IMG/VR virus record: IMGVR_UViG_3300021060_000024
Coordinates: 11,577 to 75,576 of that record
Length of the DNA: 64,000 bases
Direction: 5' to 3' (one strand)
Source of the DNA: a virus
Lineage: Duplodnaviria; Heunggongvirae; Uroviricota; Caudoviricetes
A program made the position numbers and the translations under genes. The notes beneath the pieces were generated by a model, which searched no databases, was not told where the DNA came from, and saw only the letters and a program-made list of their open reading frames with translations. Below are positions 3,683-48,919 of the stretch, in pieces; the first letter of the stretch is position 1, and each line of letters starts with the position of its first letter.

Positions 3683-4069
3683 TCACGGCTGCACTCGCGG
3701 CCGCACGAGGATGGCCTCGCACAGCACGCAGATGTCCCGGCGGCACTGCGGCTTCGCGCAGGAGCAGCGCTCCCAGACGTGGTCGCACCCCGGGCTCGGG
3801 GCCAGGTCGTAGATGTCGATGTCGAGGTGGTGGGCCAGCAGGATGGCCTCCTCGAAACGCAGGCGCCGCGTGCCGAGCTCGATGGCGCCGTACTGGTCGG
3901 CGGCGAGGTCGCACAGCGCGGCCATCTCCACCCGCGTCATGCCCAGGCCGGTGCGCAGCGTGCGCAGACGCTCGGCCACGCCGCCGTCGAACTGGCTCCA
4001 GCTCTGGAGCTTCTGGCGGTTCGGGTTCGGCGCTCCTCCGGGCATGTAGAGATGATGACGAGTGGACAA
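3683..4069 (-). CDS. XRE-family HTH regulator with Cys-rich C-terminus (repressor-like); likely leaderless start at ATG 4045
   Basis: HTH_XRE signature VAERLRTLRTGLGMTRVEMAALCDLAADQYGAIELGTRRL. C-terminus CDHVWERCSCAKPQCRRDICVLC. TTGACT -35 (4080-4075), 17-bp spacer, CATCAT -10, then the ATG immediately at 4045. Confidence 0.65.
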   Translation of the reverse strand: MSTRHHLYMPGGAPNPNRQKLQSWSQFDGGVAERLRTLRTGLGMTRVEMAALCDLAADQYGAIELGTRRLRFEEAILLAHHLDIDIYDLAPSPGCDHVWERCSCAKPQCRRDICVLCEAILVRPRVQP

Positions 4070-4092
4070 GTCTTAGTCAACCCGGACATGAC

Positions 4093-4127
4093 GAGAGCCC
4101 CGGACCCTGAGGGTCTCCGGGGCTCTC
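4093..4127. terminator. GC-rich hairpin between the NlpC/P60 and HTH genes
   Basis: Perfect 12-bp inverted repeat GAGAGCCCCGGA ... TCCGGGGCTCTC with an 11-nt loop. Confidence 0.4.
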
Positions 4128-4163
4128 GCCAATCAGCCACCCACCACGGAGGCTGTCTGGATG

Positions 4164-4931
4164 CTACAGGACGCGACGGAACACGACCTCATCAGTCCAG
4201 AGCTTGCGCTCGCTGACCTCGCTGCCCGTGCGCGGCGCGTCGATGATCTTGCCGTTGCCGACGTAGATCGCGGCGTGGGCGTAGTCGTCGAAGAGCACCA
4301 GGTCGCCGGGGCGCGCCTCGGCGGCCGGGACCCGCGTGCCGAACGTGCGGAGCTGACCGGTGGTGCGCGGGGTGGCCACGCCCGCCGCCTTGCCGTAGAC
4401 GTACTGGATCAGGCCCGAGCAGTCGAAGCCGCGGCTCGGCGTCTCCTCGCCGTAGGCGTAGTCGATGCCGATCTGCTGGCGCGCCAGGGCGAGCACACCC
4501 TCAGCGCGCGAGGCCGCCGGGGCCGCCTGCTCGCGCTGGACGATGTCGCTGGCCTCCTCGGCCGGGGTTGCCACGGGCTGCGCGCGGCCGGGGATCACCA
4601 GGGTCTGGCCCGGGAAGATCAGCGTGCGTGCGCCCAGGCCGTTGGCCGCCAGCATGGCCGAGGTCGAGACCCCGGCGCGCCGCGCGAGCACGCTCACGGT
4701 GTCGCCCGAGCGCACGGTGACGGTGTCGCCGGTCAGGGCCGGCGAACTGGCCGGGCGCGGCGCGGCGCCCGCGGGCGCCTGGGCCATGGCCGGGGTGGCG
4801 AGCATGACCGGCACCACGGCGAGGGCGCCGGTGACGGCCGCGGCGCGGGCGATGTCGGTCTTGTGCAGGGCCAGGGTGTCGAGGACGGGCGTGGCGTCGG
4901 CCACGCGGTGACGGGCTGCGTTCCTGGTCAT
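4164..4931 (-). CDS. secreted LysM + NlpC/P60 peptidoglycan endopeptidase
   Basis: Signal peptide (AAAVTGALAVVPVMLATPAMAQA). LysM (TVTVRSGDTVSVLARRAGVSTSAMLAANGL). NlpC/P60 catalytic Cys (FDCSGLIQYVYG) plus downstream His. Start at the 29th codon of the track ORF, with AGGA upstream. Confidence 0.7.
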   Translation of the reverse strand: MTRNAARHRVADATPVLDTLALHKTDIARAAAVTGALAVVPVMLATPAMAQAPAGAAPRPASSPALTGDTVTVRSGDTVSVLARRAGVSTSAMLAANGLGARTLIFPGQTLVIPGRAQPVATPAEEASDIVQREQAAPAASRAEGVLALARQQIGIDYAYGEETPSRGFDCSGLIQYVYGKAAGVATPRTTGQLRTFGTRVPAAEARPGDLVLFDDYAHAAIYVGNGKIIDAPRTGSEVSERKLWTDEVVFRRVL

Positions 4932-5615: not shown

Positions 5616-7822
5616 CTGCTCGCGTCTCGCGCCGCGGCGCCATCGGCGCGCTGCGCCGCCTGCTCACCGGCGTGGCCCCCGGCGCTCCGGGCTACCGCAC
5701 GAACTACGTGCCCAACCCCTCCTTCGAGGTCAGCGACGTGCCGGGCTCCCCGGACGGCCAGCGCTACGGCGGGGGCACGTTCTCGCGCGACACCACGGTC
5801 AAGCAGGTCGGCGCCGCCTCCCTCAAGCTCACCGCGACCAGCACCGTGGACTCCGGCCAGTGGGAGTCGATGGCGCTGGGCGCAGGCACCTACACGGCCT
5901 CGGTCTGGATCAAGACCGACAACGTCACGAACGCCTGCATGGTCCTGCGCGACCCGGGCTTCAACGACATCGGCAGCCAGACGCACCTCAGCGGCACCAA
6001 GGACTGGACGCGCTACTCCAACACCTTCACGCTGAGCGCGCCCACCACGGTGCAGATGCTCGTGGGCCTGGGCTCCTACGGCTCGACCAGCGCGGGCACG
6101 GTCTGGTTCGACGGCATGATGATCGAGGCTGGCTCCAACGTCGGCCCCTACTTCGACGGCGGCTACTCCGCGGCGGGCTCGACCGTGGCGTGGAGCGGCG
6201 GCTCCAACGCCTCCCCCTCCACCGAGAAGCGCCAGCCGGCCACGATCGCCACGCAGGCCGCGCTCAGTGCGAGCTCCACCCTCGGGGTCTCCCTGGCGAG
6301 CAGTGGCTCCGGTGCGAGCAACCCGCCGAGCATGTCCAACCTCTACAAGGCCTCGCAGCAGGTGGACAACTACGTCTCGGCCAACCCGAGCCTGTCGGTG
6401 ATCGCCGACCAGCCCCAGGCGCGGTGGATCAACACCCAGGGCGACGCAGACAACATGGGCGGCCTGGTCAGCGCTGCGGGCACCAAGACGCTGCTGATCT
6501 GCATCTACGCCATCCCCGGGCGCGACAACGGCCAGTACAGCGCTGGCGGCTTCCCTGACCGCGCCTCCTACCTGAACTTCCTGCAGACGGTCAAGACCAA
6601 GATCGGCACCAAGTCGGCCTTCATCTTCTTCGAGCCCGACGCGCTGGGCCTGACCAACGGCCTGAGCGCCTCGCTCAAGGCCGAGCGCATCGAGACGCTG
6701 CGCCAGGGCATCGACATCCTGGCCACGATCCCCAACGCCGAGACCTACATCGACGCCTCCAAGTGGATCTCGCCGTCGGACCAGGCCGGGCTGCAGGCCG
6801 CGGTCGACATCGCCAAGGTCTCGGGCATCGTCATGAACGTCTCGGGCTACGACTCCATGGACTCCTGCTACTCCTACGGCGAGGCGGTCCTGTCCGAGCT
6901 GGCCAACCGCGGCATCACCGGCAAGAAGTACATGATCGACTCCGGGCGCAACGGGGTCGGCCCGCTGACCGACGCCGATCGCCCGCTGGCCAACCCCTGG
7001 CTGGACACCTCCCAGGCCTGGTGCAACCCGCCCAAGCGCCGCCTGGGCCCGGTGCCTCAGGTGCCCTCGGGGCGGCCCAACTGCCGTGGCCTGGTGTGGG
7101 TCAAGAACCCCGGCGAGTCCGACGGCACGTTCCCCTCGACGTCGAACTCGACCTACTACGGCGAGAACGCCCCCAGTGCGGGCGCCTTCTGGCTCGTGCA
7201 GGCCAAGATGCTCGCGGGCACCGAGCCCAGTGGCGGCAGCGGCACCCCGGCCAACACCGGCTTCTCCGCTGTGGTGACGACCTTCGACGGCAACTACGGC
7301 GGCCTGAGCGACCGCTCGGCCGGGGTCAGCCTGGTGGGCGGGCGCGCGCGCCTGACCGCGGACACCTCCTACGCCAACATCTCCACGCCGGGCTCGTACA
7401 CGCTCAAGGAGTCCTCGGTCTACGCCCGGCTGTTCCCGCCGTCGGCCAGCGGGGCGACCCAGGCGGCCACGGTGCAGTTCCTGATCCGCTCCACCGCGGC
7501 CGCGGACGGCACCCGCCTGAACGCCGAGGTCAACACCTTCACCGGCAAGCTCACGATCGCCAGCGACTCGGGCTACTACGACGCCAACGCCGTCCAGCTC
7601 ACCTACGACGCCACGGCGCATGCCTTCCTGCGCTGGCGCGAGGCGGGCGGGACGGTCTACCTGGAGACGAGCTCGGACGGCAACAACTGGACCACGCGTC
7701 GCTCGCTGGCCACGCCCTCGTGGCTGACGGCGACCAACAACCAGCTCATGCAGTTCGTGGCCTACAAGGACGCCGGGGCCGCGGCCTACGCCGAGGTCGA
7801 CAACGTCAACACCACCTCCTGA
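5612..7822 (+). CDS. three-domain glycosidase: CBM4/9-like + GH6-like catalytic + ConA/LamG-like domain
   Basis: GH6 motifs LLICIYAIPGRDNG, IFFEPDALGL and LVWVKNPGESDG. N-terminal jelly-roll region (NPSFEVSD...WFDGMMIEAG). GTG start in a GTGA overlap with the upstream stop. Confidence 0.6.
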   Translation: MTARVSRRGAIGALRRLLTGVAPGAPGYRTNYVPNPSFEVSDVPGSPDGQRYGGGTFSRDTTVKQVGAASLKLTATSTVDSGQWESMALGAGTYTASVWIKTDNVTNACMVLRDPGFNDIGSQTHLSGTKDWTRYSNTFTLSAPTTVQMLVGLGSYGSTSAGTVWFDGMMIEAGSNVGPYFDGGYSAAGSTVAWSGGSNASPSTEKRQPATIATQAALSASSTLGVSLASSGSGASNPPSMSNLYKASQQVDNYVSANPSLSVIADQPQARWINTQGDADNMGGLVSAAGTKTLLICIYAIPGRDNGQYSAGGFPDRASYLNFLQTVKTKIGTKSAFIFFEPDALGLTNGLSASLKAERIETLRQGIDILATIPNAETYIDASKWISPSDQAGLQAAVDIAKVSGIVMNVSGYDSMDSCYSYGEAVLSELANRGITGKKYMIDSGRNGVGPLTDADRPLANPWLDTSQAWCNPPKRRLGPVPQVPSGRPNCRGLVWVKNPGESDGTFPSTSNSTYYGENAPSAGAFWLVQAKMLAGTEPSGGSGTPANTGFSAVVTTFDGNYGGLSDRSAGVSLVGGRARLTADTSYANISTPGSYTLKESSVYARLFPPSASGATQAATVQFLIRSTAAADGTRLNAEVNTFTGKLTIASDSGYYDANAVQLTYDATAHAFLRWREAGGTVYLETSSDGNNWTTRRSLATPSWLTATNNQLMQFVAYKDAGAAAYAEVDNVNTTS

Positions 7823-9593: not shown

Positions 9594-12500
9594 GATCGAC
9601 CTCGACGCTCGTGACAACGCCACCGCTCAGCTCCTTGCCGTCAACCGGCTGCTGGAGCAGTTCGACGGTCGCGACGCGGACGCCAACCTCGGAGTCGACG
9701 GGGTGGGCCAGGTGCTCGCCGACATCCAGGCCGCCAACCAGGCCGCGCAGAGCTTCGCTGACCAGGATGTCCGCAAGGAGATCGAGGTCGAGAACGAGCG
9801 GGCCCTGCGCGCCCTGGAGCGCGTGCGCGCCGAGGCGGCGACGCTGGCCGACAACAAGATGCGGCTGGAGGTCGAGGTCGCCAACGCCAAGGCGCTGGCT
9901 GACCTGGCCGCCGTCGAGGCCGCCGCCGCGGCCCTGGCCGACCAGGTCAGCATGGACGTCGACATCGACGACGCCGCGGCCATGGCCAAGCTGGCCGGGC
10001 TGCAGCGCGCGGTCAACGCCATCGACGGCAACATCCGCGTGGACGCCGACACCTCCGCAGCGCGCGCGCAGATCGACGCCGTCATCGACTCGATCACGGA
10101 CCGCAAGGCCACCGTGAAGATGCTGGCCGACATCGCCGACGTCGAGCAGAAGGTGGCGCAGGTCGACGCGCTGACCTCGCGGCTGCGCGACCAGGTGGTG
10201 AGGTTCGACGGCGACGACGCGGGCGTGCGCGCCACGGTGGCTGCGGTCGAGGCCATGGTGCGTGACCTCAAGGCCAACGTGATCTTCGAGGGCGACACCA
10301 CCAACGTCGAGCAGGCCGTGGCGCTGGCCAACGGGCTGCTGCAGCAGTACGCCACCCAGCAGGCCGAGGCCAAGCTGGACGCCGACGCCGACGCCGCACG
10401 CGGGGCCATCGCCATGGCCATCGCTGACCTGCAGGCCTTCGACGGCCGAGTGGCCACTGCGCAGATCCGCGCTGACGTGGACGCTGCGGGCATCGCCCAG
10501 GCGCAGGCCCTGCTGGACTCCATCCCCAAGGAGGTCCGCAGCCGCATCACTGCCGACATCGGGGACCTGGTGGCTGGCGTCGCGGCGAGCAAGGCGGCGC
10601 TGGCCAGCCTGCCCGAAGAGATCAACATCCGCGTCGACACGCGCAACCTGTCCGACCTGGCCGACAAGGCGCGCTACGCCGGTGGCCAGATCGGCGTGCT
10701 CGGCATCGCCGTGTCCGGCCTGGGGGCGGCGCTGATCCCGCTGGGTGCGGTGGCTGTCGGCTCCGTCGGCGCGCTGGGCGCCGCCTTCACCGTCGCGGGC
10801 GGCGCGGCCACGGTCTTCGGCTTCGCGGCCGTCTCGGCCCTGGGTCCGGTGGCCGACGCCGTCGAGCAGATCCGTCAGGGCGAGCAGCAGTACAAGGAGG
10901 CCGTCACCGACCCGGCCAAGGAGGCCGCCCTCCTCAAGATCCAGATGGCCTACAACGCGCTCAGCACCGAGCAGCGCGCCGCGGTCGAGGGCGTGCTGGC
11001 CTACCAGAACGCCTGGCAGGGCCTGGTCACCAGCATCCAGCCGCAGATCTTCCAGGCCACGGCCACGGTGCTGCAGACGCTCACCAGCCTGTTCCAGCAG
11101 ATGAGTCCTGCGATCACCGGCGTGGCGAACGAGGTCGTCTCCCTGGCGAACAGCGCCGCGGCGGCTCTGGGCAACCCGGTCTGGCAGACCTTCATCAACA
11201 ACATGAACAACCTGGCCGGCCCCGTCTTCGGTGCGCTCGTGCGCGGCCTGGGCAACGTGGTCACCGGGATCATCGGCCTGGTCAACGCCTTCACCCCGAT
11301 GTCGGTCGGCTTCGTGCAGGGCTTCGAGCAGATGACGGCCGCCTTCGCGACCTGGTCGGCCGGGCTGGCCAACAACACCGGCTTCCAGAACTTCATCAAC
11401 TACATCCAGCAGAACATGCCGCGGGTGCGCGAGTTCATCGCTGACGCCGTGCAGGCCATCGTCGACTTCGTCCAGGCGACCGCACCGCTGGGCTCGACGG
11501 TGCTGGACGCGGTCAACCGGGTGCTGGAGGCGTTCAGTCGCCTGCAGGAGGTCAACCCTCAGCTCGCCGCCGTCGTGGCCTCGGTCGCGCTGCTGACCCC
11601 GGCAGTGCTGGGCGTCGCGGGCGCCGTGGCGCCGGTCATCTCCCTGTTCATCACCATGGCGGGCGCGGCCGGCGAGCTCGGCGGCGCGCTCGGCATCGCC
11701 GCGGGCGGCTTCACCGGCACGACCACCTCGGCCTCGGGCTTCGCCGGGGTCATGACCACGGTCGGCACCGCGGTGCGTACCGCGGGCGGGCTGCTGCAGT
11801 CGACGCTGGGCATCCTGACCCTGTTCGGTGGCGGCTTCATCACGGCCATCGCCGAGAGCCAGCGCTTCCGCGACACGATCGTGGACGGCTTCCAGTCGAT
11901 CGGCACGGCCTTCTCCGGCCTGGGCACGGCCTTCGCGGGCCTGTTCAGCGCGCTGGGCGAGATGGTCGGCGCCTTCAACGACGTGTCCGAGGCCGTGGTG
12001 ACCCTGGGCGGCTCCTGGGGTCAGTTCTTCGGGCCCATGGTCACCATCGCTGCGGAGTCGGCCTCGGCCGTGATCGAGATCCTCACCTCGATCGTGGAGG
12101 CCTTCTCCAACGTCTTCTCGGGCCTGGCCGCTGCGGCCAACCGGGACTGGCAGGGCGTGTGGGACGCGCTCAACGACGACGCGCCGCGCCAGGCCATCGA
12201 CCGCGCGCTGCAGAACGTCAAGAACGTGCTCAAGGCGCCCAGCCAGGACTACAGCGAGTACGGCAAGCGCTCGATGGACGAGGTCGGCCAGGGCTTCGAC
12301 GCGGGCGCAGGCCTGGTGGGCGGGCAGATGCCCAACCACGCCTCGATGCTCGCGCAGGCCTTCGGCTCCAACCTCACCGGCTTCGACACCGCGGGCCAGC
12401 AGGCCATGACCGCCGTCGGCACCGGCGCGGCCGCGGGCGTGCCCGGAGCCATCGCACCCTTCACCGGCCTGGGCACCCAGGCCAGCGGTGCTCTGACGGG

Positions 12501-21215: not shown

Positions 21216-21392
21216 GTGAGCGAGCTCGACGCCACCTACACCCACCCCACCGGCGAGCACATCGACTGGAGCGCCTGGCCCGAGCCTGACGCCGCCGACG
21301 GTGACGGCTCGGAGTTCGGCGAGCGCCTGGGCGATGGCCCCGGCGCGGTGACCGACACCACCGTGGCCGCCACCCAGCGTCTGGAGTCCTGA
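21216..21392 (+). CDS. small acidic protein (58 aa)
   Basis: GTG start. Its stop overlaps the LysA ATG. Confidence 0.3.
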   Translation: MSELDATYTHPTGEHIDWSAWPEPDAADGDGSEFGERLGDGPGAVTDTTVAATQRLES

Positions 21393-22414
21393 TGGCCCTG
21401 AACCTCGATCAGGTCGTGCAGCGCGCGATCCCCTCCCCGAACTACTCCAGCCGCGGCGGCAAGGACGTGCGCCTGCTGCTGCTGCACACCGCCGAGGGCA
21501 GCCGGACCAACGCCTCCCTGGGCTCCTGGTTCGGGCGCAAGTCCACCAAGGCCTCCAGCCACGTCGGGATCGACGCCGACAGCGTGGTGCGCTTCGTGCC
21601 CGAGGCCTACTCGGCCTGGACCGCGCGCTCGGCCAACCCCGTGGCCTCCCAGGCCGAGCTCTGCGCCTGGGCCAAGTGGAAGGGCGCCGAGTGGGGCGCC
21701 CAGGACTCGATGCTGGAGAACGCCGCCCGCTGGCTGGCGGCCGCGGCGCGCTACCACGACATCCCCCTGGTGCGCCTGCGCGACGCCCAAACCAAGTCCG
21801 GGCGCGGCGTGGCCATGCACGTCGACATCACGCGCGGCTGGCGCGAGGGCTCCCACGCCGACTGCGGCCAGTGGTTCGCCGACCACCTCATGGACTCCGT
21901 GATCGAGCGCGCTCGGGTACTGGCTGGCGGCGCGGGCAGCCCCGTGGTCGTGCCCGCGGTGCCGGTCCCGATGCCCGCAGGCCGCGGCCCCTACGGGCTG
22001 CCGGTGCTGCGCTGCGACGGGGCCGAGTCCGGCTGGGCCTGGCTGATGCAGGAGGCGCTCATCCGCGCCGGGCACGCGCTCAGCCGCGACGGCAGGCCCG
22101 GAGCCCAGACCGACCGCGAGCTGCGCAAGTACCAGGCTGCGCGCGGGCTGGCCGTGGACGCGGTCTGCGGCGGCTGGACGTGGGCCTCCTTCATCAAGGA
22201 CGCGGGCGACCCGCTGCGCCAGGGCATGGCCAAGGGCCACCCCGGCGTCGAGGTGCTGCAGAACTTCCTCGGCATGCGCGGCGCCGACCTGGACCGCGAC
22301 TTCGGCGGCGGCACCGCGGCGCGCCTGCGGGCGGTGCAGTCCTGGGGCGACCTGAGCCCCGACGCGGTGGTCGGCTCCGACACCCGCACCCTGCTCGCGA
22401 CGCGGGCCTACTGA
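21392..22414 (+). CDS. endolysin: N-acetylmuramoyl-L-alanine amidase + two PG_binding_1 domains
   Basis: Amidase_2 motifs VRLLLLHTAEGS and SHADCGQW. Two peptidoglycan-binding repeats (DRELRKYQAARGLAVDAVCGGWTW and GVEVLQNFLGMRGADLDRDFGGGTAARLRAVQ). Confidence 0.8.
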   Translation: MALNLDQVVQRAIPSPNYSSRGGKDVRLLLLHTAEGSRTNASLGSWFGRKSTKASSHVGIDADSVVRFVPEAYSAWTARSANPVASQAELCAWAKWKGAEWGAQDSMLENAARWLAAAARYHDIPLVRLRDAQTKSGRGVAMHVDITRGWREGSHADCGQWFADHLMDSVIERARVLAGGAGSPVVVPAVPVPMPAGRGPYGLPVLRCDGAESGWAWLMQEALIRAGHALSRDGRPGAQTDRELRKYQAARGLAVDAVCGGWTWASFIKDAGDPLRQGMAKGHPGVEVLQNFLGMRGADLDRDFGGGTAARLRAVQSWGDLSPDAVVGSDTRTLLATRAY

Positions 22415-22424
22415 AAGGACGACC

Positions 22425-22670
22425 ATGAGCACCGACGACCCCAAGACCATCCCGACCCCGGTCAGCCCCAAGGTCTACTCCAGCACCGGCGCGGGTGCGG
22501 CGCTGCTGGCCCTGGGCTTCATCCTGCGCTACTACGGCCTGGACGTGCCCGACGCCGTCATCGGGGCCGTGGCCGTGATCGGCACGTTCGCCGCGGGCTA
22601 CATCACCCCCGACCGCCTGCGCGAGATCGGGGCCGTCTTCCAGCGCGGCCGCGGCGAGCACCGCGCGTGA
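22425..22670 (+). CDS. holin (2 TM, 81 aa)
   Basis: Helices GAGAALLALGFILRYYG and AVIGAVAVIGTFAAGYI. Lies immediately after the endolysin. Confidence 0.6.
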   Translation: MSTDDPKTIPTPVSPKVYSSTGAGAALLALGFILRYYGLDVPDAVIGAVAVIGTFAAGYITPDRLREIGAVFQRGRGEHRA

Positions 22671-26051: not shown

Positions 26052-26537
26052 TCAGCCCCCCAGGTGCAGCACGTTGAGCATCGGCGCGACCTGGCCGCCG
26101 TGGGTGGCCTCGACGCTGGAGTTGAACCAGAAGGCTGCCGCCAGCCCCGAGCCCTTGAGCAGGCGCTGGCACCCCGGACAGGGCGCGTCGGTGATGGCCA
26201 TCCACCCGCCGCGGCGCCGGACGGGGTCGGAGTACATGATCGCGTTCTCCTCGGCATGGATGGCCACGCAGGGGTGGGCCACGCCGGGGCCGGTGTAGGC
26301 GCTGTCGGGCGCGAGGTCGGCGTGGGTCATCGACCCCCGCGGGCAGCCGGCCGCGGTCAGGCAGCCCGGCGCCTCGGGGGGTGCGCCGTTGTAGCCCACC
26401 GAGAGCACCCGGCGGTCCGCGTCCAGCACGACGGCGCCGACCCTGCGGCGGGTGCAGTCCGCGCGCATCGCCACGGCCGTGGCGATGCCGATGGCCCACT
26501 GCTCCCAGGAGGGCCGACTCGGCGTCTGGACGATCAT
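26052..26537 (-). CDS. dCMP/cytidine deaminase-family zinc enzyme
   Basis: HAEENAI plus PCPGCQRL zinc-binding motifs. Start MIVQTPS at codon 48 of the track ORF. Confidence 0.7.
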   Translation of the reverse strand: MIVQTPSRPSWEQWAIGIATAVAMRADCTRRRVGAVVLDADRRVLSVGYNGAPPEAPGCLTAAGCPRGSMTHADLAPDSAYTGPGVAHPCVAIHAEENAIMYSDPVRRRGGWMAITDAPCPGCQRLLKGSGLAAAFWFNSSVEATHGGQVAPMLNVLHLGG

Positions 26538-41829: not shown

Positions 41830-42167
41830 GACTGCTCCTTCATCCAGGCCTCGCGACGCACGCGCATGCGCCGCTGGATGGCCGCACTGATCCGGTCATG
41901 GGTACTCATCCACGGCCGCCCCAGCGCTGCGCTGGCGACGGTGGCGTAGATGCGGCTGGCCTGGGCCCTGTAGGCCGTGGACATGCCGTTGATGTCGACC
42001 TCGCCACTGCCCAGGCGCGCGCGGGTGCGCAGCTCCCACATGGCGTCGGCCGCGGCGTCAGCCGCGCGGTCCCCGGGCGGGGTGCCGCGGCGGTTGACGT
42101 AGACCCCGAGCTGCTCGATCGCGCGAGCCTCCAGGTCGGTCTCGGTGTAGTTGCTCAGCTCGGCCAT
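41826..42167 (-). CDS. hypothetical protein (113 aa)
   Basis: Internal ATG (MAELSNY...) of the track ORF. ATGA-coupled to the downstream gene. Confidence 0.35.
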   Translation of the reverse strand: MAELSNYTETDLEARAIEQLGVYVNRRGTPPGDRAADAAADAMWELRTRARLGSGEVDINGMSTAYRAQASRIYATVASAALGRPWMSTHDRISAAIQRRMRVRREAWMKEQS

Positions 42168-42406
42168 CAGCCGCGCCTCCTTCTCGTCGGCTTGAGGATG
42201 TGCCAGCCGTTCTCGGCCACGGCCACGGCCAGCATGACGAGGACGGCCAGGGCCATGATGATCAGAAAGAGCCCGGCGCTGACCCACAGCGGCGCGGTCA
42301 CCCACCACCAGGACCAGTCGATGAACCCGGTCAGCTTGAGGACCAGGAAGACCAGGAACAGCACCGCCCCCAGGCCCAGGCCGCTGGTGCGGCTCGCCTC
42401 GCCCAT
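42167..42406 (-). CDS. small membrane protein (2 TM, 79 aa)
   Basis: GAVLFLVFLVLKLTGFIDWSWWWVTAPLWVSAGLFLIIMALAVLVMLAVAV. Confidence 0.4.
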   Translation of the reverse strand: MGEASRTSGLGLGAVLFLVFLVLKLTGFIDWSWWWVTAPLWVSAGLFLIIMALAVLVMLAVAVAENGWHILKPTRRRRG

Positions 42407-42609
42407 CAGATGTTCTCCCAGACCTGCTTGGCGACCCCGATCAGGATCGCCAGGACGATGACGCCGACGACGAAGGCCAGCACCTGCAGCCAGGTGTCGG
42501 TGACGAAGCGCGCGGGGTGGTCCTCCGACCGGCGGCTCTGGATGGTCCAGAGCCGCCAGCCAGCGATCCCCACCAGCGCGAGCACCAGTGCGGGACCGAG
42601 GACCCTCAC
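42406..42609 (-). CDS. small membrane protein (67 aa)
   Basis: GTG in a GTGA overlap with the upstream gene. Hydrophobic LGPALVLALVGIAGW and VLAFVVGVIVLAILIGV. Confidence 0.3.
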   Translation of the reverse strand: MRVLGPALVLALVGIAGWRLWTIQSRRSEDHPARFVTDTWLQVLAFVVGVIVLAILIGVAKQVWENI

Positions 42610-42800
42610 CGCACGCACCCACCCGTGGTGCCGGACAGCCACGTGCCGCCGGCGGCGATGCACTCGCTCGCGAGCTTCTGAGTGATCTCACCGTTGGCCT
42701 CGCTGGTGGTGAAGAACACTCCGATGATCACCAGCACCACGATCAGGATCGCCGCGATGCCGACGAGGTTCTGGATGAAGTCGTTGTCGTAGCGGCTCAT
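42606..42800 (-). CDS. small membrane protein (64 aa)
   Basis: MSRYDNDFIQNLVGIAAILIVVLVIIGVFF. ATGA-coupled to the gene upstream. Confidence 0.35.
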   Translation of the reverse strand: MSRYDNDFIQNLVGIAAILIVVLVIIGVFFTTSEANGEITQKLASECIAAGGTWLSGTTGGCVR

Positions 42801-43309
42801 CAGCCCTCCTCGCCCTCGTGCAGCCACTTGGCCAGGGCCAGCACGTCGCGGGTCTCCGCAATGCCGCCGAGCAGGTCAGTGGCCCGCTCCCAGGAGCGCT
42901 CGCGCCCCGTGACTTCCGGGGTCGGCGGCTCGACGTCGGCCGGCTTCGGGTGGACGATCCCGATCGTGTCACCCGGGCGCAGCGTGTGCTTGCGCAGGGC
43001 GCCGTCGGGGCTGAGGATCTCGACCTCGACATAGGTGAGGCTGGCGCCGATCAGGCGCACCTTGGTCTCATTCGTGCTCACGGGCTTCTCCTCGATGTAG
43101 GGCTCCAGCTGGCTGGGGCGGATGTAGAACCGGCGCCCCAGGTTGTCCTTGCACAGCCACCAGTGCGCGGTGATGTCAGCCCCCTCGGGAGCCGTGGAGC
43201 CGTTGACGATGGTCAGCACGTCGCCCACCATCAGCGACAACTGAACGCCGCGGTCGTCGGTCAGCCGCACCCGGTCGTCGGTGCGGAAGATGTGCCAGGG
43301 GCTGACCAT
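42800..43309 (-). CDS. hypothetical protein (169 aa)
   Basis: Track ORF, ATGA-coupled on both sides. Confidence 0.4.
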   Translation of the reverse strand: MVSPWHIFRTDDRVRLTDDRGVQLSLMVGDVLTIVNGSTAPEGADITAHWWLCKDNLGRRFYIRPSQLEPYIEEKPVSTNETKVRLIGASLTYVEVEILSPDGALRKHTLRPGDTIGIVHPKPADVEPPTPEVTGRERSWERATDLLGGIAETRDVLALAKWLHEGEEG

Positions 43310-44172
43310 CAGGACGGGGCGCCCGGGTTGACGTTCAGCGCGGTGCCCTGCGGGACGGGGATCACGGTGACCTTGCCGTCCTTGATCGCCTGGTAGGTGT
43401 TGTAGCCGTCAGGGCCCAGCACCTCCACGAGCTGGCGGATGGAGTCCAGCTCGGACTGCACCTGCACGTTGCGCTGCTGCTGGGCCGTGTTCTGCTCGAT
43501 GGCCACCTGGGTCTGCTGCAGCGCGTTCGCGAGCTCGTCGGGCAGCGTGGGCGTCGACAGCGACACGGCGAAGCCCGTGAAGTAGTCCCCGCCGGCGAGC
43601 TGGTTCACGTAGCCGGGCAGGAGCTCGTTGACCCGGCCCTCGATGTCCTTGCGGACCTTGGCGTCGGCGTAGATGGTCTTCCAGTCCACGCCCTGGGCGG
43701 CCTCGGTCAGGCTGCGCTGCAGCGGGCCGCGCAGGTAGGTCTCCATGAAGCCGGACCAGTTCTGCAGACCGTCCTTGCCGGCGCCGTACTTGCGCCCGAT
43801 GTTCTCGTGGAAGGCGCGCAGCACGTCGCAGTCGGTGTTCAGCTCGAAGGTCAGCGTGCCGACCTGGGCGAGCTGGACCTGGGTGTTGGCGCCCTGCTCC
43901 CCCGAGCCCGCGGCGATGAGCGCGAGCGCCCCGCCGTCCTGCTTCTCGCCGGTGCCGAAGTCGTAGGTGCGCTGGCCGGCGGGGTACTTGTAGTGGTCGT
44001 CCCCAGGCCCGTCCCAGGAGCGCTGGCCGGGGTCGATGCAGTGGTCGAAGCTGACGTTGGAGATCACGCCGTTCTCGTACTGCAGGCCCACCTCATCCAC
44101 GTCGGTGCTCATCTGGCTGCAGCCCGCCAGGGCCAGCACGGCCAGGGGCGCCAGGAGGGTCATCTTCTTCAC
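43309..44172 (-). CDS. lipoprotein with SPFH/band-7-like domain
   Basis: Lipobox LAVLALAGC after VKKM. GAGAGGA RBS. C-terminal ...IEQNTAQQQRNVQVQSELDSIRQLVEVLGPDGYNTYQAIKDGKVTVIPVP resembles SPFH C-termini. Confidence 0.4.
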   Translation of the reverse strand: MKKMTLLAPLAVLALAGCSQMSTDVDEVGLQYENGVISNVSFDHCIDPGQRSWDGPGDDHYKYPAGQRTYDFGTGEKQDGGALALIAAGSGEQGANTQVQLAQVGTLTFELNTDCDVLRAFHENIGRKYGAGKDGLQNWSGFMETYLRGPLQRSLTEAAQGVDWKTIYADAKVRKDIEGRVNELLPGYVNQLAGGDYFTGFAVSLSTPTLPDELANALQQTQVAIEQNTAQQQRNVQVQSELDSIRQLVEVLGPDGYNTYQAIKDGKVTVIPVPQGTALNVNPGAPS

Positions 44173-44378
44173 GGGGCACTCGTCCTCTCGATGGTGATCT
44201 TGAACTTGGTCTGGTGCTGGTCGCCCAGCCCGGTCAGCGTCATGTCGACGTTGGCGACGTTGGCCCCACGGGTGCGCATCACGGCGCTGGCGAAGACGCA
44301 CAGCTCGTCGTCGTACTCCCCGTCCGCCGAGGCCACGAAGTGCTCCGCAGCCTCGGCAGCCGTGATGGGGATGGTCAC
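44169..44378 (-). CDS. hypothetical protein (69 aa)
   Basis: GTGA-coupled to the lipoprotein gene. Confidence 0.3.
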   Translation of the reverse strand: MTIPITAAEAAEHFVASADGEYDDELCVFASAVMRTRGANVANVDMTLTGLGDQHQTKFKITIERTSAP

Positions 44379-47343: not shown

Positions 47344-47900
47344 TGGACTGGCGCGAGGAGTGCGCCGGGCCCTTCGAGATCTCTGGCGCCGAGATCGAGG
47401 CGGGGGAGCTGGCGGGGCGGGCCCTGCCGGCCTCGCTGCGCACCACCTACCGCCGCGGCGCCAAGCACGGCTGGGAGTGCCGGGTGGTGTCCTGGCGACG
47501 CCCGGCCCTGCGCCCCGACGGCAGCATCAAGCCCCGCACGCGTGATGAGCCTCGGTTCGACCCCGACTCCGGCAAGCCCCTGCTGACCGAGCGGGGCGTC
47601 CAGCGGGTGAGCAAGGTCGAGATCGAGGGCAGCGCGCTGATGCAGGACACGCTGCTGCTGCAGGCCACCACCGCCTGGGAGGGCCACGTCCAGCGCCTGG
47701 CCGTGGTGTGGACCGACGGCAAGTTCGACGCGGCCTGGCACCGCTGGCCCCACCTGGGGCCGCTGTCCAGTCCCGAGGTGAAGACGTTCATGGAGTCGGG
47801 CGGCATCCCGCCGCACCGTCAGCAGGGTGTGCCCACCACCGTGTGGGCCGAGCGCGCGGCCAAGGCCGCGGCGAAGGAGGAGGACGAGGATGGCGAGTGA
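47343..47900 (+). CDS. hypothetical protein (185 aa)
   Basis: Internal ATG of track ORF 47286..47900, coupled to the upstream peptide. Confidence 0.4.
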   Translation: MDWREECAGPFEISGAEIEAGELAGRALPASLRTTYRRGAKHGWECRVVSWRRPALRPDGSIKPRTRDEPRFDPDSGKPLLTERGVQRVSKVEIEGSALMQDTLLLQATTAWEGHVQRLAVVWTDGKFDAAWHRWPHLGPLSSPEVKTFMESGGIPPHRQQGVPTTVWAERAAKAAAKEEDEDGE

Positions 47901-48231
47901 GACCCCGACGATCAAGCTGGTGGCACCGACCCTGCCGCCTGGCCACTACTACGAGGTCGAGGAGGCCAAGAGCGGCTGGGTCAAGGTCGCCGTCATGGAG
48001 GCCAACACCGAGCGGGGCACCGCGGGACTGCGCCCTCCCAGGCGGGTCATGGGCCGGGAGGCCAGCGCCCAGAGCACCCTGGCCTGGGGCACCCTGACGC
48101 CGCGCGAGCGTGTCGAGCTGGTGATGCAGCAGGTGGGTCACGAGTTCCTCGACCGCTGGAGGGCCGACCAGGAGAGCGCGGAGATGAAGACCTACATCGG
48201 TCGCTACGACGGCTCGGGGACCAAGCTGTGA
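47890..48231 (+). CDS. hypothetical protein (113 aa)
   Basis: Track ORF tail (MASETPTIKLV...). Confidence 0.4.
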   Translation: MASETPTIKLVAPTLPPGHYYEVEEAKSGWVKVAVMEANTERGTAGLRPPRRVMGREASAQSTLAWGTLTPRERVELVMQQVGHEFLDRWRADQESAEMKTYIGRYDGSGTKL

Positions 48232-48569
48232 GCCGGGCCGAGCCCACCACGCAGTACGAGGCCCTGCGGGCGCTGGGGGCGCCCAAGCTGCCCGAGGGCT
48301 ACGCCTACGCCACGGACCGGACCGACTACTACGGCAGCCGCGTCGTGGCCCTGGTGCGCCTGCCCGACGCCAGCGCTCGTCGCCCGCGCGAGCACGTCGA
48401 GAACTCCTTCGTGGTCGACGGCATCTGGCGCATCCTGTGCCTGGGCGAGCAGCGCGCCATCATCCTGGGCTGCCACGTCATGCGGGCCCTGCTGGCTCAC
48501 GACCTGCGGGCTCAGGCTCGCCATGAGCGTCGCCAGGCGCGGCTCAAGGTCGACGGGCCGCTGCGGTGA
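48228..48569 (+). CDS. hypothetical protein (113 aa)
   Basis: GTGA overlap. Confidence 0.4.
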   Translation: MSRAEPTTQYEALRALGAPKLPEGYAYATDRTDYYGSRVVALVRLPDASARRPREHVENSFVVDGIWRILCLGEQRAIILGCHVMRALLAHDLRAQARHERRQARLKVDGPLR

Positions 48570-48919
48570 GCGGGGTGGTCTACGACGGGCTGCTGAGCAA
48601 CGGCGCCCCCGCGCTGCCGGATGAGCACTACTACGAGGTGCGCTGGCGCCACACCCTGGGGATGACCTACGTCAAGGCGCGGGTCAAGCGGCGGGTGTGG
48701 CTGCCCTGGCTGCCGGGGTATGCCTGGAGCCGTCAGGTCACGCCCTGGTACGAGGCCTACGTGCGTGACGAGGACGCGCGCAGCGCGATCAGCGCCTACG
48801 CCTACGTGTGCGCCCGCACCGTGCAGGAGGGTGAGCTCCTGAGCGCCAAGAGCAAGCGCGAGCGCCACCTGGCCGAGTTCGCGGGCAAGCATGGCCCCCT
48901 GCGGGGCCAGGGTGCCTAG
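48566..48919 (+). CDS. hypothetical protein (117 aa)
   Basis: GTGA overlap. Confidence 0.4.
   Translation: MSGVVYDGLLSNGAPALPDEHYYEVRWRHTLGMTYVKARVKRRVWLPWLPGYAWSRQVTPWYEAYVRDEDARSAISAYAYVCARTVQEGELLSAKSKRERHLAEFAGKHGPLRGQGA

Follow-up and report, generated by a model that had tools for sequence, protein, structure and literature searches.

A predicted outward-facing SPFH lipoprotein and its small membrane-protein neighbours in a phage genome

We analysed a 64,000-nucleotide stretch of the virus record IMGVR_UViG_3300021060_000024 (positions 11,577 to 75,576; hereafter the window), which has a GC content of 71% and resembles most of an actinobacteriophage genome. Our subject is a minus-strand gene at 44172-43309, encoding a 287-aa lipobox protein of the SPFH or Band 7 superfamily that starts V/MKKMTLLAPLAVLALAGC, together with the small genes around it. 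In the direction of transcription orfB precedes the SPFH gene, orfD, orfE, orfF and orfG follow it within 42167-44378, and orfH ends the chain just beyond that interval. A first-pass annotation had described a lipobox protein with an SPFH-like domain and a co-translated chain of small membrane proteins, and had read the combination as a superinfection-exclusion or abortive module. Its structural description is essentially right, and the chain is real, with all of its genes joined by overlaps on the minus strand; the interpretation as a whole is partly supported.

The SPFH protein and its predicted topology

Assignment of the protein to the SPFH/Band 7 superfamily is solid. The Pfam Band_7 profile (PF01145) matches residues 23-234 with E=1.8e-7 and 31.9 bits, against a gathering cut-off of 23.6. 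A profile search of the PDB by sequence alone found stomatin only marginally (E about 0.2), and a fold search was therefore needed. An AlphaFold2 (AF2) model built on 44 homologs had a pLDDT of 92.1 and consisted of a beta-rich N-terminal part, the SPFH core, one 53-residue helix (212-264), and a lower-confidence tail. With this model, Foldseek placed human stomatin (9oh9 and 9z7u; E~1e-7, ~280 columns, probability 1.0) at the top of the PDB, followed by flotillin (9bq2 and 9l3g; E 1e-6, probability 1.0), and a fold search of BFVD returned many viral Band-7 proteins. Profile, model and fold search agree on the SPFH domain that the first-pass annotation had proposed. It had been placed at the C-terminus, but the domain occupies residues 23-234 and has the long helix behind it.

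The match to the stomatin and flotillin cages is nearly full-length, taking in the SPFH core and the long helix that forms the cage wall, at about 11-12% sequence identity. Compared with these proteins, the phage protein has an enlarged beta-rich N-terminal part. Lipid-assisted membrane attachment is common to both, but stomatin and flotillin use a hairpin and palmitate on the cytoplasmic leaflet, whereas an N-terminal lipid anchor on the outer leaflet is predicted here. Among the homologs, conservation is strong in the C-terminal stretch LGPDGYNTYQAIKDGK-V-V-PVPQG, and the tail, from about residue 265, is a low-confidence coil in the monomer model. This conserved tail is the sole hint that the protein may oligomerise.

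The N-terminal 18 codons (44119-44172, minus strand) encode a signal peptide with lipobox, MKKMTLLAPLAVLA-LAGC, with Cys18 at 44121-44119. The GTG start codon overlaps the stop of orfB in the sequence GTGA. In the signal, MKK-MTLLAPLAVLA-LAGC, a basic n-region is followed by a hydrophobic h-region and a lipobox that satisfies the pattern [LVI][ASTG][GA]C, and the LAGC lipobox of the first-pass annotation is thus present. The Pfam profile LPAM_1 scores 17 bits, under its cut-off of 20. A lipobox is present in 83 of 119 homologs, and 33 of them have a transmembrane (TM) anchor at the N-terminus that is left uncleaved. The mature part contains two or four cysteines in 110 of the 119, and C45 and C115 are nearly invariant. 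These lipobox or TM anchors and the paired cysteine pattern suit a disulfide-bonded domain that is exported and held at the outside of the cytoplasmic membrane, where the SPFH domain very probably lies as a lipoprotein. The orientation predicted for the phage protein thus looks like the extracytoplasmic one of HflK/C, whereas stomatin and flotillin have the opposite, cytoplasmic orientation.

The 119 homologs came from a large protein collection, and most carry a precomputed PF01145 tag. A tblastn search gave family matches in 118 phage records, annotated as "band-7-like membrane protein" or "lipoprotein". Corynebacterium phage PSonyx gp94, one of the proteins with the former name, is 44% identical and Rhodococcus phage E3 gp172 43% identical to the SPFH protein, each over >90% of its length, and the cluster L mycobacteriophage proteins (Faith1 gp52, Vetrix gp52 and LeBron gp49) are about 30% identical. 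The PHROG family phrog_200 ("lipoprotein") matches with E=3.3e-16, and its actinophage proteins share the N-terminal lipobox or TM anchor and the early or non-structural gene placement seen here. To judge by these matches, the protein is a new member of a phage family that is already known and annotated; SPFH proteins are encoded by a wide range of viruses that includes actinophages and giant viruses. The points that may be new are the extracytoplasmic topology and the recurrence of orfF next to the SPFH gene. Overexpression of LeBron gp49 caused mild growth inhibition (PMC13148394), which is the only experiment on a family member that we found in the literature, and we found no paper on the role of a phage SPFH protein in infection.

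Genome scans with a narrow alignment found the family in Nocardiopsis, Nonomuraea, Thermobifida, Microtetraspora, Nocardia, Micromonospora and Saccharibacteria. Several Nocardiopsis species have the same chromosomal neighbour beside the SPFH gene; host copies therefore exist. In loci from five species (L037, L041, L043, L044 and L045) this upstream neighbour, at about 4000-4900, is a 255-aa protein with eight TM helices, which suggests that the family has a host-core copy in that genus, and in three of the five a LapA-like two-TM protein is encoded near the homolog. Two metagenome-assembled genomes of Candidatus Saccharibacteria (L051 and L078) encode SPFH homologs, with 38% identity, together with an upstream bitopic partner. 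Members of the Saccharibacteria are known to live as epibionts on Actinobacteria.

The predicted orientation also suits a role like that of HflK/C, in which the SPFH dome would enclose the extracytoplasmic part of the host FtsH, or of another protease or quality-control factor, and so shift which membrane or phage proteins are degraded. HflK/C is the only well-studied extracytoplasmic bacterial SPFH pair (PMC12048511), SPFH families have repeatedly been associated with FtsH (PMC2636767), and some sources name homologs of the phage protein "regulator of protease activity HflC". HflK and HflC of E. coli (SPFH3) resemble the phage protein in having an N-terminally anchored SPFH domain, a long helix, and a cage-type C-terminal segment. 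They form a heteromeric pair that associates with FtsH and has a TM anchor, however, whereas the operon has one SPFH gene, with a predicted lipid anchor, and no protease gene nearby. The top structural matches are stomatin and flotillin rather than HflK/C. An NCBIfam scan gave a weak signal-peptide match only, with neither the HflK nor the HflC equivalog, and on this result and the single SPFH gene we rejected membership in HflK/C. Protease control of this kind seems to us quite unlikely. A further SPFH protein on a phage-derived element, the prophage-encoded HflK/C-like PM0222 of Pasteurella multocida, belongs to a Gram-negative host and was studied only as a virulence and Toll-like-receptor-stimulating factor (PMC9872710); it is likened to the present protein by description, not sequence.

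Small membrane proteins beside the SPFH gene

The three or four two-helix proteins of 64-79 aa listed in the first-pass annotation are three small membrane proteins, of which those of 67 and 79 aa (orfF and orfG) have two TM segments and that of 64 aa (orfE) has one. The 67-aa orfF (42609-42406, minus strand) forms a two-TM hairpin whose loop is basic. Its C-terminal tail, QVWENI, is conserved and recurs in its homologs as (Q/x)-W-x-N-(I/LT). In locus L007 the homolog directly follows the SPFH gene with a 4-nt overlap, in L006 it follows a 69-aa lipoprotein that itself follows the SPFH gene, and in L081 it lies behind an HNH endonuclease inserted downstream of the SPFH gene. The genes between the two thus vary by locus. 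In L080 the orfF homolog keeps its downstream order; this contig begins inside an orfD-like gene, so that the SPFH position is not covered, and from there the order orfD-like, orfE, orfF, orfG, orfH, DUF6197 is retained at 34-75% identity. The orfF homologs were detected by phmmer with E=4e-5 to 8.5e-4; the values of E=1e-23 to 1e-35 obtained with a hidden Markov model are against its own seed sequences, and hence circular. A search of 5.8 billion proteins added only three more close relatives. As judged by this synteny, orfF is a conserved, lineage-specific companion that travels with the SPFH gene.

The association of orfE (42800-42606, minus strand) with the SPFH gene appears looser. It has one TM segment, at residues 12-30, and a short C-terminal tail with two conserved cysteines. 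In L080, homologs of orfE (34% identity) and of orfH (56% identity) each lie in the position corresponding to that gene, and in L006 the orfE slot is taken by the 69-aa lipoprotein, which has a similar Cys..GG..C tail.

Counted within the window, the clustering of membrane genes is not decisive. When membrane genes are called strictly (6 of 98 genes), three small ones in a row have p about 0.012; with a liberal call the value rises to about 0.16. Stronger support comes from other loci, where 12 of the 23 genes immediately downstream of SPFH homologs in phage-like loci encode a small TM protein, compared with 34 of 334 in the background (Fisher p = 2.5e-6; the loci are related and not phylogenetically independent).

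In at least 13 more distant loci of phages or prophages, a different conserved bitopic protein of 70-90 aa is encoded immediately upstream of the SPFH gene (L014, 3729-3992; L017, 3702-3950; L050, 4732-4998; L076, 73-321; and at least nine others). It combines an N-terminal TM segment with a juxtamembrane stretch rich in Arg and a helical tail that ends in ..IRxFH..P. The window does not contain it. In PSonyx and E3 the gene directly upstream of the SPFH gene encodes a small single-TM protein, and these phages, like those of cluster L, have no orfF-type hairpin directly downstream, unlike the present phage.

The NfeD proteins are the classical small membrane partners of SPFH proteins (PMC2636767), and the SPFH-NfeD operons of bacteria and archaea resemble the present cluster in the translational coupling of an SPFH gene to that of a small, co-occurring membrane protein. 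NfeD, however, has TM helices and an all-beta OB-fold domain, whereas orfF is a bare 67-aa hairpin; in the SPFH-NfeD systems the SPFH domain faces the cytoplasm, and in the phage the partner gene lies downstream of the SPFH gene. We rejected an NfeD identity for the partner proteins, as none of orfB, orfD, orfE, orfF, orfG and orfH has an NfeD match in Pfam at E<=1.

The third small membrane protein, orfG (42406-42167, minus strand; 79 aa), has two TM segments and a loop rich in Trp (DWSWWWV), and its C-terminus is basic. The protein matches phrog_1374 with E=9.1e-22 and scores 21.8 bits with the Pfam profile Tmemb_185A, just short of the cut-off of 23.1. Its homolog in L080 is tagged PF27910 (Small_Trp_rich), and the family comprises at least 3,487 homologous clusters in phages and many bacteria. 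A tblastn search of orfG against phages gave no match, probably as a result of low-complexity masking, since the profile searches reveal a huge family. By its profile matches, orfG is a member of a widespread family of small Trp-rich membrane proteins that is independent of SPFH.

orfG also resembles the holin family Phage_holin_3_6 faintly (E=0.14, far under the cut-off). This resemblance could be taken to favour a role in membrane stabilisation or lysis timing, in which an SPFH scaffold and small membrane proteins would hold holin-type lesions in check, or sustain the energised state of the membrane, until the infection cycle ends. Bacterial SPFH proteins do act in membrane-stress responses (PMC8581546), and the toxicity of LeBron gp49 was only mild. 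The stress-response proteins face the cytoplasm, however, and the lysis cassette of the phage, an amidase gene at 21392-22414 and a gene for a small predicted membrane protein at 22425-22670, is ~20 kb away on the other strand. A role in stabilisation or lysis timing thus strikes us as very improbable. We rejected a holin identity for both orfG and orfF, given that neither has a family match above cut-off and that the lysis genes (21392-22670) are on the other strand.

Between the SPFH gene and orfE lies orfD (43309-42800, minus strand), a soluble orphan of 169 aa. It belongs to no family in Pfam, PHROG, PADLOC or NCBIfam, and tblastn against phages gave no match; weak Pfam hints of SH3 and DUF6406 are unconfirmed. 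An exhaustive phmmer search of 1.84 billion representatives returned only orfD itself and spurious repeat proteins, and its single-sequence AF2 model was poor (pLDDT 60). The slot it occupies is variable, being empty in L006-L008. In L081 an endonuclease of the HNH/NUMOD4 homing type (1006-1482) stands between the hairpin gene and an SPFH gene whose product is 84% identical to ours, where the window has orfD and orfE, and for this reason the SPFH/orfF junction looks like an insertion hot spot.

The separate histories of orfG and orfD raise the question of whether the cluster is a functional module at all, or a set of independent mosaic genes packed into a dense operon, with the SPFH gene alone having a recognisable role. 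Overlaps of 4 nt or 1 nt are found at 39 of the 84 same-strand junctions in the window and are therefore not a special mark of the SPFH cluster; the liberal membrane call leaves the run of three membrane genes unremarkable, and many SPFH-bearing phages have no neighbouring membrane genes. An independent assortment of genes does not, however, readily account for the persistence of orfF beside the SPFH gene in the three independent settings of L007, L006 and L081, where the insertions between them differ, for the synteny of orfE to orfH in L080, or for the enrichment of small TM genes beside phage SPFH genes and the second partner family upstream in other lineages. We consider the absence of any module unlikely. 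The term "module" of the first-pass annotation suits orfF, and loosely orfE, which travel with the SPFH gene, but not orfG or orfD.

A proposed membrane scaffold

Our best explanation, to which we give about an even chance, is an outward-facing SPFH lipoprotein scaffold with orfF as its partner, encoded in an early or non-structural operon. The lipoprotein signal would direct export of the SPFH protein, which a lipid anchor would then hold to the outside of the host's cytoplasmic membrane. To our knowledge, every solved SPFH assembly is of the ring or dome type, and by analogy the phage protein would most likely oligomerise in the same way, using its long helix and the conserved tail at its C-terminus, so as to enclose a membrane patch under the dome. 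The orfF hairpin, whose conserved termini are predicted to lie on the same outer side as the SPFH domain, would be a lineage-specific partner, and we infer that the two proteins touch. The single-pass orfE, with its Cys-pair tail, would be a looser companion. During infection the three together may isolate or rearrange an area of the membrane, or one of the membrane proteins of the host. The other genes of the chain, orfB, orfD, orfG and orfH, are neighbouring mosaic genes rather than demonstrated components. Candidate outputs of such a scaffold are phage exclusion, control of a membrane protease, and membrane stabilisation.

Several observations weigh against this proposal. The orfF family is detectable in five lineages only, and the two-TM proteins of L008, L012 and L016 have no sequence similarity to it. 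PSonyx, E3 and the cluster L mycobacteriophages have no membrane gene downstream of the SPFH gene, and the chromosomal SPFH homologs of Nocardiopsis and Nonomuraea mostly stand alone. None of orfD to orfG matches NfeD. The enrichment may reflect no more than a general clustering of membrane genes in phage genomes, and the loci behind it are interrelated. Oligomerisation, lipidation, localisation and the contact between the SPFH protein and orfF are all predictions, and the sole experiment on the family gave the mild growth inhibition by LeBron gp49 (PMC13148394).

A broader form of the scaffold proposal is that actinobacteriophages carry a two- or three-part, outside-facing SPFH system, consisting of an outer-leaflet dome and miniature membrane partners (orfF and orfE here, the upstream bitopic protein elsewhere), that fences off a site in the host membrane. 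We regard this generalisation as decidedly improbable. If it were true, the fenced site could be, for example, the DNA-entry or the cell-wall-synthesis machinery, and the system would be an undescribed phage device for membrane compartments, distinct from those of the NfeD and HflK/C types. What the locus itself adds for the actinophage family is the very probable outside location of the SPFH domain and the candidate tiny, dedicated membrane partners. If these two points were confirmed, the locus would offer a compact and experimentally tractable system of two or three small genes for asking how an SPFH cage affects a membrane and what a phage gains from it. Otherwise, it would amount to a routine "band-7-like membrane protein" annotation with unrelated small membrane genes.

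The operon and the phage genome

The operon that contains the SPFH cluster runs leftward and has at least 14 genes. In its stretch from 46.4 to 40.9 kb we found no internal promoter-like site and one weak, chance-level match to a terminator. Because it sits within a long operon that has no internal promoter, the cluster is not a stand-alone moron. The overlaps had been described as GTGA and ATGA. Four junctions (DUF6197/orfB, orfB/SPFH, orfE/orfF and orfH/DUF6197) are indeed 4-nt GTGA overlaps, but ATGA was wrong; the others (SPFH/orfD, orfD/orfE, orfF/orfG and orfG/orfH) are 1-nt overlaps of the form TGATG.

Upstream in the same operon are four tandem DUF6197 paralogs (46369-44375, minus strand), with Pfam values of E=1e-16 to 3e-19 where scanned; all four carry the DUF6197 tag in precomputed gene calls. 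A fifth lies downstream (41829-41422, minus strand; E=1.7e-18). The cluster does therefore sit amid a paralog array, as first described, and the five paralogs, which have a conserved CC..GA motif, flank it on both sides within one operon. The two remaining genes of the chain encode soluble proteins. orfB (44378-44169, minus strand; 69 aa, with no TM segment) is translationally coupled to the SPFH gene, has no family in Pfam, PHROG, PADLOC or NCBIfam, and among the loci that we fetched occurs only in identical contigs. orfH (42167-41826, minus strand; 113 aa), the chain end, has no Pfam or PHROG family.

The gene content of the window was read with a GC3-based gene scan and a Pfam search of 20 open reading frames (ORFs). 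It includes a tape-measure-like ORF of 1,911 aa, the lysin at 21392-22414, with amidase and peptidoglycan-binding domains, and genes for a Prim-Pol/D5 helicase, a dCMP deaminase, a YqaJ exonuclease and a DNA methylase. Candidates for the large terminase and portal, near 60.6-64 kb, fit by ORF size and position. No integrase domain was found in the 20 scanned ORFs or among the precomputed domains of ~33,300-54,200, and the phage is probably virulent. A megablast search with 41-46 kb found no near-identical DNA in a phage genome collection.

These results bear on superinfection exclusion, in which an early surface SPFH lipoprotein and small membrane proteins would block the entry of DNA from later phages, for instance by caging or masking an injection component. 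Incoming phages act on the outside of the membrane, the side on which the SPFH domain is predicted to lie, and known excluders include lipoproteins and small membrane proteins such as T5 Llp (PMC9586334) and P22 SieA (PMC10883804). The genes are in an early-type, non-structural operon, although the cluster is not a separately transcribed moron. The family occurs in temperate (cluster L) and lytic (E3) phages alike, but its syntenic chromosomal homologs in Nocardiopsis argue for a general membrane role. PADLOC gave no match for the seven proteins at E<=0.1, no PHROG family of the exclusion category was matched, and we know of no report of a phenotype of that kind. Since no integrase domain was detected in the scanned ORFs, exclusion expressed from a prophage is unlikely; early lytic exclusion of the T4 Imm/Sp type is possible. 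With no PADLOC match, no integrase found, and overlaps that are normal in this genome, the exclusion or abortive label of the first-pass annotation is speculation without supporting evidence. We judge exclusion as an explanation of the cluster to be unlikely.

The region is identical on a 75,580-bp metagenomic contig, whose independent gene calls equal ours. The coordinates of the window fit this contig only if it is circular. The end of the contig (~26232 in the window) falls inside the dCMP deaminase gene (26052-26537), which suggests a complete, circularly permuted genome with ~11.6 kb of it outside the window.

Three further features were noted elsewhere in the window. A 716-aa protein of the structural or tail region (5672-7822, plus strand) contains a glycosyl hydrolase family 6 domain, of the cellulase type (E=4e-38), which is unusual in a phage virion-region gene. 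A minus-strand gene at 4164-4931, embedded within the plus-strand structural block, encodes an NlpC/P60 peptidase with LysM and an N-terminal hydrophobic segment. Three successive plus-strand ORFs of ~113-117 aa at 47890-48919 have a common N-terminal motif resembling LPxGHYYEV, and may be a second small paralog array.

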